Shown here piece by piece: positions 4,472 to 64,000 of a DNA stretch of 64,000 nt. Each line of letters opens with the position of its first letter. Within the stretch, counting starts at the first letter, position 1. The notes beneath the pieces are model-generated. The model ran no database searches and had not been told where the DNA came from. It was given only the letters and a program-made list of their open reading frames with translations. Origin of the DNA: Thermodesulfobacteriota bacterium. Lineage in GTDB: Bacteria; Desulfobacterota_D; UBA1144; Nemesobacterales; JAJCZQ01. A program made the position numbers and the translations under genes. The stretch is taken from contig OZ244044.1 in assembly GCA_965215275.1 (NCBI GenBank), forward strand, positions 1,152,001 through 1,216,000, read 5' to 3'.

Positions 4472-4501
4472 TTGACATTCATTAATAATACAAAGTAAAA
4501 T
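4472..4501 (+). promoter_or_regulatory. Sigma70-type promoter of S8-like gene 1
   Basis: TTGACA(4472)-N18-TAAAAT(4496); homologous to the promoter at 60091-60119. Confidence 0.7.
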
Positions 4502-4511
4502 AGAAAAAGTC

Positions 4512-7009
4512 ATGAACATCCTGTTTAGAGTAACACCCCCCCCCATAAGTTATTAATTCCCTTTTTCTTTCTTCTGTGCTTTGTAAACGTTGGTGCATAT
4601 GGTCAGACCAGCGTTGATAACTGCGACTCCAGTGCAACGACAGAAGCTACATTGACAGTAGCCGGAAGTACACGTAGTGGAAGTTTAGCTGCCGGTGCTG
4701 ATCCGCATTACTTTCAGATAGACGTGAATGAAAGATTGATCGTGGCTATAATAGTAACCTTCCCCTTCTCCAATGATCAGGGATACAGTTTACAGGTATG
4801 TGACAGCAATAATTATCTGATAGCAAGTGCTGCTGGAGTTCGTATTGAGGATGAGGGTATAGTGAAGGTCACTATAGAAACCCGCCTCAGACCTGGAACG
4901 TACTATATAGTAGTGGGAAGCCGTGTTGCCACGTCCTACAATGTTGCAGTTGTGGTATCTGATCTTAATACTGTATTTGATGATGACTGCCCGGAAAGTA
5001 GTACTACAAATTATCCAAACGACACCTTATACGGTTGTCAGTGGTATCTGAAACGTCAGGCGGGTGAGTTTATATTAGGTGAAAAGACAATACCCGATAC
5101 GGAATATGCAGACATAAACATAGAAGAGGTCTGGGATGATAACGTATTTGGAGCTGAGATTAACGTAGCGGTGGTAGATCATGGCATGGACACAGATCAT
5201 GAGGACCTTGCTGATAACGTGGATACTACACTTTCTCATGATTACTCAGGAAGCGGTGATCTGTACAGTCCTTTCAGTGGTCGCGGCACACGTGTGGCAG
5301 GCATTATAGCAGCAGTGGGTGATAACAGCCTTGGAGTAAGAGGTGTAGCACCTCAGGCAAGCATCTACAGTTATAATTTAGCTGATAACTTCAGTGATAC
5401 TAATGCAAAGGACGCCATGGTCCGTAATAAGGATATAACGGCTGTATCTGTCAACAACTGGGGACCGAAGGACCTGCCGGTTCTTACAGAGGCTTCATCA
5501 GAGTGGGAAGAAGGAGTGGAAACTGGTATAAGAGAAGGATTTGGTGGTAAAGGAGTATTTTACGTATGGGCGGCAGGGGACGGACATGAAGGATCAGACC
5601 AGGCTAATTTTAATGAGTATTCCAACTACTACGCTGTAACTACCGTATGTTCATCAGAGATCGATAGTCATGATAGCTTGATCACTAAGGGTTCGAGTAC
5701 TTTTTCAGAAGAAGGGTTCAATCTATGGGTATGTGCACCGGGTTCTTATATTGTAACTACGGACAATAACGACATTTATACTTTTGAGTTCCCTGGAACG
5801 TCAAATTCAGCTGCTGTTGTTTCAGGAGTAGCGGCACTGATACGGGAGGTAAACAGTGATCTTAGCTGGCGGGATCTGAAACTGATCCTGGCAGATTCAG
5901 CCAGCCAGGGAGACACCCAGTTAATTCCTGTTAGTGATAATTGGAAACCAGGAGCATTTAAATACAGTTCTGATTCAGAACGTTATCGTTACAGTCCGAA
6001 GTTCGGTTTTGGCACGGTAGACGCTGCTGCGGCAGTAGAACTTGCAGGAAGCTGGACCAACGTTCCACCGCCAATGAGACCCGTGACGGTTTCCTCGGGT
6101 AATATCAATACAGTTATCCCGGACTTCACAACGGGAAACTCAGAAGAAGATGTTTCCGTCGTTTTCACACTGACAGTACCTGATATAGATATACCAGACA
6201 CTGAGGGCTTTACGGAATTTATAGAGATCGGTATTAATTTCACTCACCCTTTCTTTCCTTTTTTAAGTATAGAAATAACTTCCCCTGACGGTAGAGTGTC
6301 AAAACTCACTGAGGCATATCCAGCAGAAGCTTTATCACTTTTATTATCTGGCAGATCTCTTACTGTAGACGACTTTGACTATACAGGCAGAGAGCATCGT
6401 TTTGGTTTAGCTAATCACTTGGGAACGGACCCTGCCGGAGAGTGGACCTTGAAGATAACCAACGCTTCAGTCGCAGGTGCGGGGACCTTACACTCATGGA
6501 ACATTAAGGTCTATGGTCATATGTCTGGTGAGACACCTACGTTCGGCGGCTGGACGATACCAGATAAGAATTACGTGCCGGGAACCGCAGTAAAGGAAAC
6601 ACTGCCTGAGGCAACAGCAGGGAATGGAGAACTGACCTACAGCCTTTCCCCTCTTTCTTTACCTGCTGGACTTACTTTCAGTGAAACTGACCGAGTGATT
6701 AGCGGAACACCAACTGCTGTATCTTCCGGCAGTTATACATATACGGTAACGGATGAAGATGGAGATAAGGATGAGCTGAGATTTACTATCAGGGTAACAA
6801 CTACGCCGCCAGAACCAACAGACCCACCAACAACAAGACCACCGACACGAAGACCGACATCATCAGGTACAGGCGGAGGTGGAGGAGGATGTGCGGTCTC
6901 CGATCAGAGCAAAACTGTTCCTGATCTGCTCGCAGCAGTAGCATCTCTGATGCTTATACCTGTATCCGTAGTTATCAGAAGGAAGATAAGGTCTCGGATA
7001 AAGACTTAG
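4512..7009 (+). CDS. Kexin/subtilase-like (S8) surface protein, probably inactive: signal peptide, PPC-like domain, S8 domain, P-domain, one Ig-like repeat, Pro/Thr linker, GGGGGC-TM-basic tail; frameshifted at a C9 tract
   Basis: VAVVD, RGTRVAG (His replaced), AAGDG, GTS, LSWRD, GFG and GEWTLKI motifs. The frame extends upstream of the track's TTG 4652 into a signal peptide (HKLLIPFFFLLCFVNVGAYG) that joins ATG 4512 only if the tract is C10 or C7. Confidence 0.85.
4536..4544 (+). repeat. C9 homopolymer, candidate contingency locus
   Basis: ACA-CCCCCCCCC-ATAAG, 24 nt after ATG 4512. Confidence 0.9.
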
Positions 7010-36739: not shown

Positions 36740-39328
36740 ATGGAAGCACAAACTCCCATGATCAAACAGTATAATAAGATCAAGAACAACCACCCGGATT
36801 CTATACTGTTTTTCCGCCTAGGGGATTTTTATGAAATGTTCTTTGATGATGCCAAAACGGCTTCAAAAGTGCTTGGCATTACATTAACGTCAAGGAACAA
36901 GTCAAATAAAAGTTCAATCCCTCTATGCGGCTTTCCCCACCACAGCGTTGAACCATACTGTGCCAAGCTGCTGGAAAATGGGTATAAAGTGGCAATATGC
37001 GAACAAGTTGAGAAACCAAAGGACACAAGGAACGTTGTAGAAAGAAAAGTGGTGAAAATCCTAACTCCCGGAACAATTCTTGACTCGGAAAATCTGGAGT
37101 CCAAATCCAATAACTATATAGCAGCCGTTTATTTAAGTGAGAAGGAACCTACTATCTCTTACTGTGACATATCAACAGGTGAATTAAGAATATCTTCTCT
37201 CAATGATCACAATGATATGATGGATGAGATAGTACGGGTTGAACCAAGAGAAATATTAATAGATCAAAGGCAGAGGGAAAACCTGTCTTTAACAAAACAG
37301 TTCTTTAACCCGCTCATAACTGAAATAGATGAATGGAAGTGGGATTACAAAAATTCCAAGAACGTTCTGCTGGAACACTTAAACGTTGCCAGACTGGAAT
37401 CATTTGGCATTGAAGATAATCACGGTGCTGTAATTTCATGTGGGGTGCTTCTCAGTTACCTGTCTGAAACTCAGATGGACTTCATGCCGAATTTGCAGGA
37501 CCCACAGCTTTACAAACCAAGCGACTATCTAGAAATAGATGATTCAACCAGAAAAAACCTGGAGATATTAAAACCTCTAAATGATGACAAGAACGGACCC
37601 TCTCTGCTTTCAACCATAGACAGAACATCGTCTGCCATGGGAGGCAGATTAATGAAACAATGGCTCAACTACCCGCTTAAAAACACAGACGATATAACAA
37701 AACGGCTTGATTCCGTGGATGAACTTAGAAGGTCCTCGGAACTTAGGGACAGTATCGCCGTAGAACTGAAAAAAATAAACGACATTGAAAGGTTAATTGG
37801 AAGGATCTCCACCGCGGCTGCAAAACCAAAGGATATGGCAGGACTCAGGGATTCAGCATTCTCAATTGAGGAAATCAAATCACTTACGGGTAATTTCAAT
37901 TCAGAACTGCTAAGATCTGTTTATAACGAACTTGATGATCTTGCCGATATTAAAGAACTGCTTTTAAGTGCTCTTGTAGAACAGCCCCCTCATTCATCCA
38001 GAGAGGGCGGGATATTCAAAGAAGGTTTCAACGAAGAACTGGACCAGTTCAGATCAATTCAAAATGAAGGCAGGAGATGGATCTCTGATTTGGAGGCAAA
38101 GGAGAGAAAATCTACAGGTATCGGTTCCCTTAAGGTCAAGTATAATAAAGTCTTTGGATATTACATTGAAATTACCAAGTCCAATACCTCTCTTGTTCCT
38201 TCAAACTATATAAGAAAACAGACGGTCAGTAACGCGGAGAGGTTCATTACGCCTGAACTGAAGGACTTTGAGGAAAAAATACTCAACGCCAAAGAAAAGA
38301 TACTGGAAATTGAGACAGATCTTTTTGAAAAACTTCGCTCAGCCGTATCAGACAAGTCCGCAAGGATCAGAAAGACCGCTTCCCTGATAGCTCGGCTTGA
38401 TGTACTTTGCTCCCTTGCAGAGGTTGCAGACAAGAACGGATATGTAAAACCCACGGTCAACAGCGGCGAAAAGATCTATCTTAAAGACAGCAGACATCCG
38501 GTCGTGGAAAGCCTTGAACTGGAAAACGGGTTCGTTTCAAACAATATAATTCTTGATAAGGAAAATCAGGTCCTTATTGTCACTGGTCCGAACATGGCAG
38601 GTAAATCCACTCTTATCCGTCAGGCGGCTATCATAGTCCTTCTCGCTCAGACCGGAAGTTTCGTCCCTGCATCCAAAGCAGAGATCGGGGTCGTGGACAA
38701 GATATTCACCAGGGTCGGGGCATCTGACAATCTGGCAAAGGGATTATCCACTTTTATGGTCGAGATGGTAGAAACCGCTTATATATTGCGAAATGCCACT
38801 GATAAGAGTTTTGTAATACTGGATGAGATCGGCAGGGGGACCAGTACGTTCGATGGAATGAGCATCGCGTGGGCAGTTGCCGAATACCTTCACGACATGG
38901 GAGCAAAAACCCTGTTTGCCACCCACTACCATGAGCTTGCTCAGCTGACCCGTTCCAATCCACGAGTAAAGAACTACAATGTTCTTGTAAAAGAGGATAA
39001 AGATAAAATTATATTTCTGAGAAAACTTGTCCCGGGATACTCAAGCCACAGTTATGGGATACAGGTTGCAAAACTGGCAGGAATTCCTCAAAAGGTCATA
39101 ACGTCTTCCAGGAACATGCTTTCAACCCTGGAGAAGGTCCAGTCAAAACTTACAGAGCTGATGACAGGCGATCAGATGGTTCTCTTTGATGAAACTGCTG
39201 ATAATGAAATAGATGAAAATACTCACAGTGAGATCATAGAATATATTAAAGAAATCGATCCAATGAACCTGACACCTATGGAATCCCTGGCAAAGCTGAT
39301 CAAACTGAAGGAAAAGATAGGAAATTAA
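36740..39328 (+). CDS. mutS: DNA mismatch repair protein MutS
   Basis: TPMIKQY, GDFYEMF, GPNMAGKST, DEIGRGTST. Confidence 0.98.
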   Translation: MEAQTPMIKQYNKIKNNHPDSILFFRLGDFYEMFFDDAKTASKVLGITLTSRNKSNKSSIPLCGFPHHSVEPYCAKLLENGYKVAICEQVEKPKDTRNVVERKVVKILTPGTILDSENLESKSNNYIAAVYLSEKEPTISYCDISTGELRISSLNDHNDMMDEIVRVEPREILIDQRQRENLSLTKQFFNPLITEIDEWKWDYKNSKNVLLEHLNVARLESFGIEDNHGAVISCGVLLSYLSETQMDFMPNLQDPQLYKPSDYLEIDDSTRKNLEILKPLNDDKNGPSLLSTIDRTSSAMGGRLMKQWLNYPLKNTDDITKRLDSVDELRRSSELRDSIAVELKKINDIERLIGRISTAAAKPKDMAGLRDSAFSIEEIKSLTGNFNSELLRSVYNELDDLADIKELLLSALVEQPPHSSREGGIFKEGFNEELDQFRSIQNEGRRWISDLEAKERKSTGIGSLKVKYNKVFGYYIEITKSNTSLVPSNYIRKQTVSNAERFITPELKDFEEKILNAKEKILEIETDLFEKLRSAVSDKSARIRKTASLIARLDVLCSLAEVADKNGYVKPTVNSGEKIYLKDSRHPVVESLELENGFVSNNIILDKENQVLIVTGPNMAGKSTLIRQAAIIVLLAQTGSFVPASKAEIGVVDKIFTRVGASDNLAKGLSTFMVEMVETAYILRNATDKSFVILDEIGRGTSTFDGMSIAWAVAEYLHDMGAKTLFATHYHELAQLTRSNPRVKNYNVLVKEDKDKIIFLRKLVPGYSSHSYGIQVAKLAGIPQKVITSSRNMLSTLEKVQSKLTELMTGDQMVLFDETADNEIDENTHSEIIEYIKEIDPMNLTPMESLAKLIKLKEKIGN

Positions 39329-60090: not shown

Positions 60091-60119
60091 TTGACATCCG
60101 TTCATAATACGAGTAAAAT
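60091..60119 (+). promoter_or_regulatory. Sigma70-type promoter of S8-like gene 2
   Basis: TTGACA-N17-TAAAAT, homologous to 4472-4501. Confidence 0.7.
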
Positions 60120-60128
60120 ATCAATGTT

Positions 60129-63100
60129 ATGAAAATACCAAACATAAAAACATGTAGTTCCATTACCCCCCCCCGTGTATACCTGAACTTTCAACCTGGT
60201 ATAAGTATTTTGTAAGAACAATGTTTAAGATAATACCCCCCCCCATCTAAGTCATTACTAACGTTAGTCTTATTTCTTCTGATTATTATGGTCATAGCTG
60301 CAAAAGGGCAGAGCAGCCTGGAAGAAACATTATCTGAATGCAGAGGAATCAGTGCAGACACGGAAGATCCGTTATACGGATGTCAGTGGCATCTGAAAAA
60401 TACAGGACAGCTTGGTTTTTCCGGAAAGGAAATAACTGCAGGAGAAGATATAAACATAGAGGGAGTGTGGAACGAAGAGGTATATGGTACAGGAATTAAC
60501 GTAGCAGTAGTAAGCGACGGCATTGACCTTTCACATGAGGACCTTTCTGCAAACGTTCGTTCCGGACCGAACTATGATCATTCAGACAGTTCATCTTTTA
60601 GTGGAACACGAGCGGCAGGAGTTATAGCAGCAACTGGATATAACGGACTGGGAGTAAGAGGAACTGCACCTGGTGCGAGTATATACAGTTACAGGTTATC
60701 CGGTGATCTCAGTGAAGCGGACGCGGTGGTCCGTAATAAGGAAATAACAGCAGTATCGGTTAACGGCCGGGGATCTGAGGACGGAGCTTTTTTTCAGGAG
60801 GCTTCATCTTCCTGGGAAGAAGGAGTGGAACTTGGTATAAAGAAAGGGTTTTATGGTAAAGGAGTGTTTTACGTCCGGGGAGCAGGGGACGGGCATGAAA
60901 GAGGAGATCAGGCTAATTTTAATGAATATTCCAGCTATTACGGAGTAACAGCCGTTTGTTCAACTGACGGTTTTGGAAAAAAGAGTATTTTTTCAGAAGA
61001 GGGAGTAACTCTATGGGTATGTGCACCTGGTTCTGATATTGTAACCACTGATAACAACAACGATTACGTTGTAACTTCCGGAACATTTCTATCAGCTTCA
61101 CAGGTTGGAGGAGTGGCAGCACTGCTGAGAGAGATAAACGACCAGCTGAGCTGGAGGGATATAAAGCTTATACTTGCGGGTTCAGCACGGCAGAACGACG
61201 TTTCTGACCTTAGCTGGGAGACTGGAGCGGTTAAATACGGCTCTGACACGGAAAGATATAAATATAATCCTAAGTATGGTTTTGGTGTGGTTGACGCAGA
61301 AGCAGCCGCAGAACTTGCCAGAAGCTGGAAAGGCGTTGGAGAAATGAGGACCGTTACCGCCTTTTCAGATAAAGAAATAACAATTCCTGATGGAGAAGGA
61401 AATGGAGAAGGAGAGGCAGACGGGGTCCTTGTCTCAAGACTTATTATCCCTGACCTGGAAGAAACAACGTTTACGGAGTTCACAGAAGTTGAACTTGTTC
61501 TCTCGTGTGACTGCTTACAGGACCTTAATATACAGATAACCTCTCCTTCCGGAACAGTATCTGAACTTGTGCGGGAGTTTGTAAGTGGACCTTCGGATGA
61601 AGAAAAAAACTGCGTCAGTTACCTGAGAAGAACACATCGTTTCGGGTCGGCTAAACACCTCGGAGAAGACCCTTCCGGAGAATGGGTCCTTAAAATATCC
61701 GATACTGCTTCCGGAGATACAGAAAATGAAAAAAACACTGTTACCTTACACTCATGGAGCATTAAGGTATACGGGAATTTTTATCAGGAACATGGCAGTG
61801 AGATAAGTGCTAAACATCATGATCTTAGTTTTGGTGGTGCGACAGTTCCGGATCAAATCTACAGAGTAGGAACACAAGTAAACTACAGGTTGCCTAGTGC
61901 AAGTGGAGGGGGTGGTGGACGTACATATAGTTTATCTCCTCGTTTACCTGCTGGATTGGACCGTCAAAACATATTAGTAATAAGAGGAACACCAACTACT
62001 GTAACACCTAATACACTTTATACATTAACTGCTACAGGTTTCAACGGAGATAAGGATAGTCTAACGTTCAATATCACAGTAAAAGAACCTGACACATCAC
62101 CAACCTTTTCAGGAGCAACGGTCCCTGAACAGATATGGACGGAAGGGGTAAGGATACCAACGTTACGTTTTCCTAATGCAACGGGAGGTAACGGAACTTT
62201 AACATACTTTTTAAGTCCTGCGCAGCCAGTTGGTATCAGCAGACAGGACAACAGGTTATTCGGAACACCTACGGAAACTCAAAGAAGATCTCGTTATACA
62301 TGGACAGTCAGAGACAAAGATGATGATGAAGATTCTATTCAGTTCTATATTACTGTAAGAGAGAACGTCCCTACCTTCGGAGGTCAGACAATACCTCAGC
62401 AGAATTATATAGTAGGCAGAACAATACAAAGATTAGTATTTCCTCGTGCAACGGGAGAGGAGCCGTTAACTTACAATTTAGAAGGAGGTCCGACTAATTT
62501 ACCAGGTGGATTGAACTTAGTAAGTAATCCAACAAGTATAATCGGAACACCAACTACAACGGCGGACATTAATTACAGATGGACAGTTACGGACAAAGAT
62601 GGAGATAAGACAGAACTTCCGTTCAGGATGAAGATAAGAACTGCATCTGAAGTACCGGACTTCGGCAGTGAGACGGTAGAAGATCAGGTGTGGGGTAACG
62701 GCAGAGCAGTAACGTTAACTCTGCCTCAGGCAACGGGAGGGGATGGAACTTTAAATTACAGTTTAAGCGGTGTAATACCAAATGGACTTATTTTTAACAG
62801 TAACACCAGAACGTTAAGTGGAACGCTCGACGTTGCTGCTCCAAGTGTATTACCCATAACTCTTTCATATACTTACAAGGTAACTGACTCTGACTCAGAT
62901 GATGACGGGGATTCTGACAGTATTACTTTCTCTATTACTATAGAAACTAACCAAGAACCGAGCTTTGGAGGTCAGTCAATTCCTGATCAGATATATATTC
63001 AAGGGACAACGGTAGGTCTTCCGGTAACGCTTCCTGCTGCCACTGGTGGTAATTCTCCACTTGTTTATAGTATCTCTCCTGCTTTACCTTCTGGATTGAG

Positions 63101-64000
63101 CTTTGAGCCTGCTACCAGAGAGATAAGCGGAGCACCAACTAATATTTCGGGTTTGATAACAAATTATACATATAAGGTAACGGACAGTGATGGAGATACG
63201 GCTAATCTGAGTTTCCGCCTGCAAATAATCGGTAACACCCAGCCAGTCTTTAATAATACGATAACAGATAAGGTGTATTATACGTTTACAGGAGTAACGG
63301 AAACGTTACCTGAGGCAGCACAAAATAATAATCCACCTTCAACTTACAGTTTAACTCCTGCATTACCTGATGGACTGAGATTTACCCCTGCTACCAGAGA
63401 GATAACAGGAACACCGACCACTGCAATGTCTGAGACTGATTATACGTATACGGTTGCTGATCTAAATGGAGATACGGATGATCTGACGTTCAGCATAACT
63501 GTATTAGCAGGAACTGACACGGAACCAACCTTTGGCAGTGAGAGTATAGATAATAAGGTGTACATTAACGGCATTACAGCAGTAACGTTAACTCTGCCTG
63601 CTGCTACTGGAGGGGATGGGACTTTAACTTACAGTTTAGAGAGGGACCCTGGAGATGGTATTTTCACTACTGCTTTATTTAAGGGATTGACATTTACTGC
63701 AAACACCAGAGAGTTAAGCGGAACACCCAATCTTGATATTCATCCAAGTCTATTTCCTGCAACTCAGGATCATAAATATGAAGTAACAGACAATGATGGA
63801 GATACAGCAGAGATAACGTTCAGTATAACAATAGAAGAAGACAGCGAACCGGACTTCAGCGGTGTGACAATACCAGATCGTGTGTACACGGGGAGAACAA
63901 TAGAGCTGCCAGAGGCAGCGGGAGGGAATTTACCGGTTACATACAGTATAACACCTGATCTGCCAGCTGGATTGAGATTTAACGAAGTAACGCGGGAAAT
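60129..64000 (+). CDS. Large kexin/subtilase-like pseudo-protease with P-domain and at least 8 Ig-like (He_PIG-like) repeats; runs off the window; 5' end interrupted by two C9 tracts
   Basis: Absent from the ORF track. By hand translation the frame is open from 60234 to the window end (>1240 codons): signal peptide SKSLLTLVLFLLIIMVIAAKG, DPLYGCQWHLKN, LSWRDIK, GFGVVDA, GEWVLKI, then PxFG..IPD...D.DGD repeats. True start 60129 or 60221; first in-frame ATG is 60288. Confidence 0.88.
60166..60174 (+). repeat. C9 homopolymer (tract 1 of gene 2)
   Basis: ATTA-CCCCCCCCC-GTG. Confidence 0.9.
60236..60244 (+). repeat. C9 homopolymer (tract 2 of gene 2)
   Basis: ATAATA-CCCCCCCCC-ATCTAAG. Confidence 0.9.
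61824..64000 (+). repeat. Tandem 90-108 aa Ig-like repeats
   Basis: Units start near 61824, 62100, 62370, 62655, 62958, 63243, 63525 and 63849 with LSFG/PTFS/PTFG/PDFG/PSFG/PVFN/PTFG/PDFS. Confidence 0.85.

Follow-up and report, generated by a model that had tools for sequence, protein, structure and literature searches.

The window analyzed here, a stretch of 64,000 nucleotides from a genome assembled as one contig of 1.99 Mb (42.5% GC), carries two genes for S8 peptidase-like proteins, locus 1 and locus 2, both on the plus strand. Locus 1 is headed by a putative sigma-70-type promoter (4472–4501) consisting of a -35 box TTGACA (4472–4477), an 18-nt spacer and a -10 box TAAAAT (4496–4501), the function of which is predicted from its sequence; this promoter and that of locus 2 each scored 11/12 against the sigma-70-type consensus. 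The start codon at 4512, which lies 10 nt past the -10 box and lacks a Shine-Dalgarno (SD) sequence, opens an OFF-state peptide of only 14 codons with a terminal stop (4512–4556). A C9 tract is located within it (4536–4544), and the gain of one C would join this ATG to the signal-peptide frame of the 820-codon main frame (4547–7009).

The head of locus 2 was found to be more elaborate. Its promoter (60091–60119; TTGACA at 60091–60096, a 17-nt spacer and TAAAAT at 60114–60119) is followed after 9 nt by the first ATG (60129), from which a 28-codon OFF-state peptide (60129–60215) is read to a stop ending 5 nt before an internal ATG. A first C9 tract (60166–60174), one base short of the read-through frame, precedes a second, decayed promoter-ATG copy (60183–60223; CTGAAC, 17 nt, TATTTT, 9 nt and the internal ATG at 60221), and a second C9 tract (60236–60244), which overshoots the signal-peptide frame by one base, leads into the main frame of 1350 codons (60246–64000 within the window), which ends 298 nt past the window. 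The deviations of the two tracts, one base short and one base over, leave the net frame unchanged, yet a stop intervenes between them. Both genes are thus out of frame as assembled, and neither has an in-frame ATG, GTG or TTG ahead of its hydrophobic signal segment. A search for the promoter-ATG pattern returned two matches in the window, namely the two heads, and none in 100 shuffles. The original prediction had placed a promoter, a close ATG and a C9 run at each locus, and all of these were recovered; it had, however, overlooked the C9 at 60166–60174 and assigned a single tract to locus 2, and the stretch it aligned to the locus 1 head (60216–60257) belongs, according to the head anatomy, to the decayed second member of a tandem duplication of the unit.

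The proteins of this family share a layout of signal segment, S8 domain, P domain, one to many He_PIG immunoglobulin (Ig) repeats and a Cys tail, the last being a Gly-run-Cys, hydrophobic and basic segment. In locus 1, the S8 domain (about 5153–5917), the P domain (about 6221–6508) and one He_PIG repeat (about 6557–6799), all on the plus strand, are accompanied by a hydrophobic signal segment, a variable N-domain, a Pro/Thr linker and the tail. Locus 2 likewise has a signal segment, an S8 domain, a P domain, He_PIG repeats and the same tail, with five He_PIG stretches passing Pfam inside the window. No prodomain was detected by Pfam, and the last 69 residues of locus 1 matched no NCBIfam family at E values up to 0.1. 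The best solved relatives of the S8-P region were Kex2 and furin (E 8e-34), and in the alignment the catalytic His position of locus 1 holds Arg, with the oxyanion Asn of this locus also replaced by Asp; the triad positions are occupied by Asp/Arg/Ser in locus 1 and Ser/Ser/Phe in locus 2. The cargo called kexin-like in the original prediction has an S8 domain followed by a P domain, as kexins do, but is for the most part a pseudoprotease and not an active kexin; the triad is incomplete in both window proteins.

What had been described as two paralogues proved to be a family of 59 dispersed loci (64 rows minus 5 downstream pieces), besides which one remnant head of 51 codons and two orphan promoters were found. 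A 5' tract of C8–13 was present in 52 of the 59, with 24 single heads and 28 double heads that together hold 80 C/G runs, compared with a tract near the start in 8 of 1007 other ORFs of at least 250 codons. As read from their sequences, none of these eight is a housekeeping gene; the prediction that other paralogues would bear tracts and ordinary genes would not was thereby borne out. A promoter of the TTGACA type (TTGAC) and an SD-less ATG occur in 51 of the 52 tract-bearing copies, and the predicted absence of SD sequences extended to the family, an SD-like word preceding 1 of 51 cassette ATGs versus 281 of 825 long ORFs. The 52 tract-bearing frames occupy approximately 7.8% of the genome and are dispersed, with a median gap of 25.5 kb and 7 of 51 gaps under 6 kb; their flanks, inspected by eye, have patches of unequal length in common and show no shared end. 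A full catalytic triad was retained in only 1 of 49 tract-bearing S8 domains versus 6 of 7 tract-less copies. Four tract-less copies and the one triad-bearing tract copy form one supported group in the tree, so the association between triad and tract reflects one event rather than many.

Several further features of the copies were observed. The tract-bearing copies show a strand bias (44 on the plus strand, 8 on the minus strand) that is seen in both GC-skew halves (23/8 and 21/0), the other long ORFs being about evenly distributed; it may stem from spread by direct-repeat recombination or from selection against inversions. Three copies with tract-less heads (genome positions 518332, 605571 and 668426) have body tracts, G13, C9 and C17, respectively, that break the frame. 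A CPBP/Rce1-like membrane protease gene (680830–681114, minus strand), the one CPBP-type gene found, is situated directly upstream of the family copy at 680561, a position that would suit a sorting enzyme.

The frame states of the paralogues were mixed, as had been anticipated: 5 of 50 scorable copies were in frame, comprising 4 of the 22 single heads that could be scored and 1 of the 28 double heads, and the rest were out; two further single heads would be in frame if translation began at an ATG located 6 nt past the -10 box. A change of at most one base per tract resolves the frame in 50 of 52 heads, the shifts needed being +1 in 13 and -1 in 5 single heads, and -1 in 20 and +1 in 3 at tract 2 of the double heads. 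Counted by tract, 17 of 78 family tracts were in frame overall and 6 of 39 at the modal C9. The p values of the binomial tests on these frame states (0.03 and 0.02) overstate significance because the paralogues are kin.

All 28 double heads contain, between their tracts, a -35-like hexamer, 17 nt, a -10-like hexamer, 9 nt and an ATG, and this constant layout identifies the inter-tract segment as a second copy of the promoter-ATG unit, near consensus in two copies (206429 and 289999) and decayed in most. In all 24 haplotypes, one inter-tract frame was open and the other two were closed. Crude nulls for stop avoidance in the open frame gave 0.004 and 0.008, and the support is modest, as 2 of 61 observed alleles would make a stop on the majority string and are found only together with a neighboring change. 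Read in the modal-C9 frame, 27 of the 28 double heads reach a stop no more than 5 nt from the internal ATG, and in the third frame 25 of 28 meet one at least 34 nt earlier. This arrangement of frames and stops implies that tract 2 is obligatory and that tract 1 likely adds a second condition, either as a strict AND gate or as a three-level control composed of read-through, restart at the internal ATG past the adjacent stop, and early stop. Four copies have the left flank of tract 1 fused to the right flank of tract 2, the product that a loop-out between the tracts would leave. Single and double heads are scattered over the body clades, well-supported branches forcing at least six changes in a tree that was built by a quick method on 36 of the 59 family rows (18 were lost to the motif filter and 5 had no start motif) and that does not resolve the basal order. 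An antisense promoter reading through tract 2, a candidate prompted by flanks resembling the spacer-type promoters of relatives, appeared unlikely; its -10 side scores at background and its best spacing is mostly off.

The tracts were next set against the run-length spectrum of the whole genome, which holds 139 C/G runs of at least 8, where extrapolation from the C5/C6 and G5/G6 counts gives fewer than one. C and G runs number 36 and 42 at length 6, fall to zero at length 7 and have a mode of 9 beyond, whereas A and T runs decay smoothly up to length 9. The 59 non-family tracts fall largely in methylase-, TPR-, glycosyl-, sulfo-, methyltransferase- and lipoprotein-like genes, assigned mostly from motifs by eye and in one case confirmed by Pfam. 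The lengths of 8–13 in the family are exceeded in part by those of four methylase-remnant heads (12, 12, 14 and 26), and these longer runs indicate that C runs slip in this DNA. Absent mismatch repair was ruled out as the cause of the tracts, since the frames of mutS (868 aa, window 36740–39328) and mutL (617 aa) are both intact; intact MutS and MutL would lower the switching rates.

Among the other tract genes, a second family of paralogues, TPR-like in sequence, carries C9–11 inside the reading frame (19539, 20737, 31545, 1068992, 1899949, 1901573, 1914729 and 1964984). In three lipoprotein-like genes (94069, 1295437 and 1301357), G9–10 stands five bases before the ATG at the place of the SD sequence, possibly serving as a translation-start switch. 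The dinucleotide TA precedes 30 of 59 non-family C runs versus 72 of 865 C5–C6 runs, across many unrelated genes, and this flank is also common in relatives.

The bodies behind the heads appeared to be maintained. They were open to the tail in 47 of 52 copies and broken downstream in 5, and the dN/dS values were 0.35 in the locus 1 clade (9 OFF copies) and 0.29 in the locus 2 clade (16 OFF copies), compared with 0.36 among 4 tract-less copies. The OFF copies have diverged to a dS of about 0.25 without acquiring stops. Purifying selection at a dN/dS of about 0.3 indicates that the OFF copies are selected as proteins and hence are expressed at some time.

Tract lengths were then compared across sequencing runs and assemblies. 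In none of 10 tract-by-run comparisons did the length differ from the assembly, so that no switching event was observed, with the restriction that the run contigs may include the source sample and that contigs drop minor alleles. The contigs of runs X1, X2 and X3 span three family tracts each (C9, C11 and C10) and those of X5 span one, with no gap or substitution relative to the assembly; these identical lengths in independent contigs remove assembly error as an explanation. At locus 1, the listed long contigs end at 4492, short of the tract at 4536, and pieces of paralogues pile up there. In other assemblies, four clear orthologues (91–97% identity) were found, for which the state was judged from called protein starts rather than from DNA, and a search with shorter homologues yielded no further orthologues. 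Two loci that are in frame in this genome have the same state elsewhere (91–96% identity). One OFF locus has a downstream start call there as well and is apparently OFF in both; for the locus at 1482199, in frame here, two other assemblies (95% identity) have the protein called from a start further downstream. Judged from these gene calls, the state appears different in one of the four orthologues, which suggests that it is partly conserved among assemblies. An orthologous methylase has C13 here and C9 in the sister species G001. The identity between paralogues is patchy along the protein. Family DNA was not found in the scanned JGI metagenome contigs, a set from which near-identical records may be missing.

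With regard to the origin of the head, a profile of the family promoter retrieved two stray family copies, one orphan promoter and then three methylase-remnant heads (E 0.03–0.3). The head of the copy at 1389821 aligns to the methylase-remnant head at 496990 on both sides of the tract, a match equaled in 0 of 1000 shuffles upstream and 0 of 1000 downstream (best of 8 targets); downstream of the tract, a methylase match at no more than 6 of 1000 shuffles was obtained for 3 of 7 family heads tested, two heads besides that of 1389821 reaching 4 or fewer. The two window heads compared with the methylase heads gave 13 and 629 of 1000 shuffles at best. Methylase genes with C9 heads also exist in G001, where the S8 family was not found (this genome being 80% complete), and the transfer from methylase to S8 is therefore the simpler direction. 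From these alignments, derivation of the head from the 5' end of a DNA-methylase gene seems reasonably probable to us.

Of 101 genomes of the order searched at E 1e-30, one contained the S8-P region, and relatives with intact triad motifs exist elsewhere at 40–50% identity, so that the family looks like a recent local expansion. The nearest relatives of the NAD kinase encoded beside a window gene include Candidatus Dadabacteria and 'Thermodesulfobacteriota', the best four being 70–84% identical, and at these four closest loci the gene had no S8 or acyltransferase match beside it, so that a precise empty site could not be delimited. The number of C9 runs in 30 relatives varied from 0 to several hundred overlapping matches. 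Unrelated TTGACA-ATG-poly-C heads occur on large fn3/Calx-beta proteins in the relatives G025 and G005 and at one locus of G011. G runs are placed within promoter spacers of a collagen-like lipoprotein family in G011 and G025 (G9–13) and of He_PIG lipoproteins in G001; 18 of 20 sampled spacer-type loci of G011 have a -35 box, with spacers of 14–16. The spacing of the poly-G promoters of these dispersed lipoprotein families is mostly 14–16 or 19 nt. The sole S8 hit of G002 and two tract loci of the same genome look low-complexity or non-bacterial, and binning contamination is possible there. We offer only tentatively the wider scenario in which a portable head captured from a phase-variable DNA-methylase gene came to sit on 52 surface genes and was doubled on 28 of them into a two-input switch, at the same time as protease activity was lost, yielding a default-OFF, antigen-like repertoire of about 8% of the genome as one of several independent solutions of Dadabacteria lineages to the same end, among them frameshift heads and promoter-spacer G runs.

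Based on these observations, we propose, with a probability of roughly 0.7, slipped-strand phase variation of a default-OFF repertoire of surface proteins. The one or two poly-C tracts between the start codon and the signal sequence would act as slippage switches, and the gain or loss of one C at replication would turn each copy on or off independently and heritably, the population displaying a handful of proteins from a large and for the most part silent repertoire. Transcription would be near-leaderless, given an ATG 9–10 nt past the -10 box, and the products, predicted to be exported and anchored via the Cys tail, would present catalytically disabled kexin-like domains on Ig stalks for binding rather than cutting. 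We consider the head a probable acquisition from the 5' end of a phase-variable DNA-methylase gene, after which it would have been distributed and reshuffled among the paralogues. In Campylobacter jejuni, poly-G/C tracts have a modal length of nine, and tracts of G8 tend to lengthen whereas those of G11 tend to shorten (PMC3401435); if the same tendency applies here, most loci would rest in the OFF state, as only 6 of 39 C9 tracts are in frame. Against the proposal stand the unchanged lengths in the 10 tract-by-run comparisons, the partial conservation of state among assemblies and the intact MutS and MutL frames.

Three other explanations were weighed against this one. The DNA could be fixed and the decoding leaky, all copies being displayed at a low level through transcript slippage, frameshifting or restart at an internal ATG. 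Such decoding would account for the purifying selection on OFF copies, for the constancy of majority tract lengths across runs (0 of 10 differing), for a state common to other assemblies at three of four clear orthologues and for the proximity of the modal-C9 stop to the internal ATG (no more than 5 nt in 27 of the 28 double heads). The shifts needed, however, run in both directions, unlike those of a programmed ribosomal shift, and C runs are poor slippage sites for RNA polymerase in comparison with A/T runs. Moreover, the tract lengths vary among paralogues and are longer in decayed genes, and relatives have tracts of the same kind in promoter spacers, a setting in which nothing but the length of the DNA could have an effect; we accordingly regard leaky decoding as improbable. 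Somewhat more doubtful still is a slow switch or silent archive, in which tract changes occur only on an evolutionary timescale, selection keeps a few loci on and the OFF copies are chiefly a source of sequence for gene conversion into them. The patchy identity between paralogues, the scatter of head types over body clades and the same loci being in frame in diverged strains fit this idea, but pure donors have no need of the promoter and start kept by 51 of 52 copies, nor of the signal segments and tails, and the OFF copies remain without stops at a dS of about 0.25.

Decay or error, that is, homopolymer miscalls or mutational traps disabling redundant copies, was judged very unlikely. Five of 52 bodies are indeed broken, a 51-codon remnant head and two orphan promoters exist, and catalytic residues have been lost; nevertheless, three tract lengths were reproduced by independent contigs, adjacent tracts are off in opposite directions, A/T runs fall smoothly to 9 and the dN/dS matches that of tract-less copies. 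Slipped-strand variation of a default-OFF repertoire remains our preferred reading. Three marks of a translational contingency locus were found in this family, namely an excess of tracts, a 5' tract that sets the frame and intact bodies behind OFF heads; a difference in state between strains is suggested by one of the four orthologues and by none of the 10 contig comparisons.

Exact-phrase searches of open-licence papers returned none joining 'Dadabacteria' with 'phase variation', none on two homopolymeric or repeat tracts in series with phase variation, and nothing on this S8-P-Ig family. Among characterized systems, the opa paralogues of Neisseria are dispersed and carry their repeat in the signal-peptide coding region. 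They are reported as complete paralogues, 11 per strain, each with a frame-shifting repeat tract (PMC5320596, PMC11868660). The family described here resembles opa in its dispersed, complete paralogues, each with a promoter and a 5' repeat, and differs in that opa has a pentamer repeat, beta-barrel adhesins and about one fifth of the copies, whereas poly-C and S8/P/He_PIG proteins are found here. We know of no tandem duplication of promoter, ATG and tract in opa. NalP is a subtilisin-like protein. Together with MspA (AusI), it is reported to have poly-C in the coding sequence of a surface protease, with lengths of 6–15 and the on state at 7, 10 and 13 (PMC3723659); the term 'new phase-variable system' in the original prediction therefore goes too far, the mechanism being that of known contingency loci, which include this published poly-C surface protease. 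NalP and MspA are single-copy, active autotransporters, in contrast to 52 copies of a kexin-type protein with a P domain, mostly without the triad and with a Cys/membrane tail. Kexin and furin (S8B) likewise share the S8 and P domains with a family in which the triad is mostly incomplete.

For the tracts of C. jejuni, rates of 4e-4 to 4e-3 per division have been given (PMC3401435). The modal length of nine is common to both, although C. jejuni has 11–29 tracts per genome in unrelated genes, compared with 139 here, 80 of them in the heads of one family and in a genome whose MutS and MutL frames are intact. A poly-C paralogue family has reportedly also been described in Chlamydia pneumoniae. The vlhA repertoire of Mycoplasma gallisepticum comprises, as reported, 30–50 surface-protein genes with repeat-controlled promoters, of which few are strongly expressed (PMC6258824). 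Its GAA repeats lie upstream of the promoter and act on transcription, in 3–5 clustered cassettes of lipoprotein genes, unlike the dispersed genes described here, whose tract follows the ATG and would act on translation. A head with two tracts would provide a built-in means of keeping on-rates low while a repertoire expands, and the methylase link hints at the route by which new genes acquire switches. Should the organism live with an invertebrate host, the system would also offer a test of what selects antigen-like variation without adaptive immunity (phage, host lectins or phagocytes). The family works like Neisseria opa and nalP and Mycoplasma vlhA and is a member of none of them. Being larger than the opa set and similar in size to vlhA, it would carry surface variation by contingency loci on a large scale beyond cultured pathogens, into an uncultured, phylum-level lineage.
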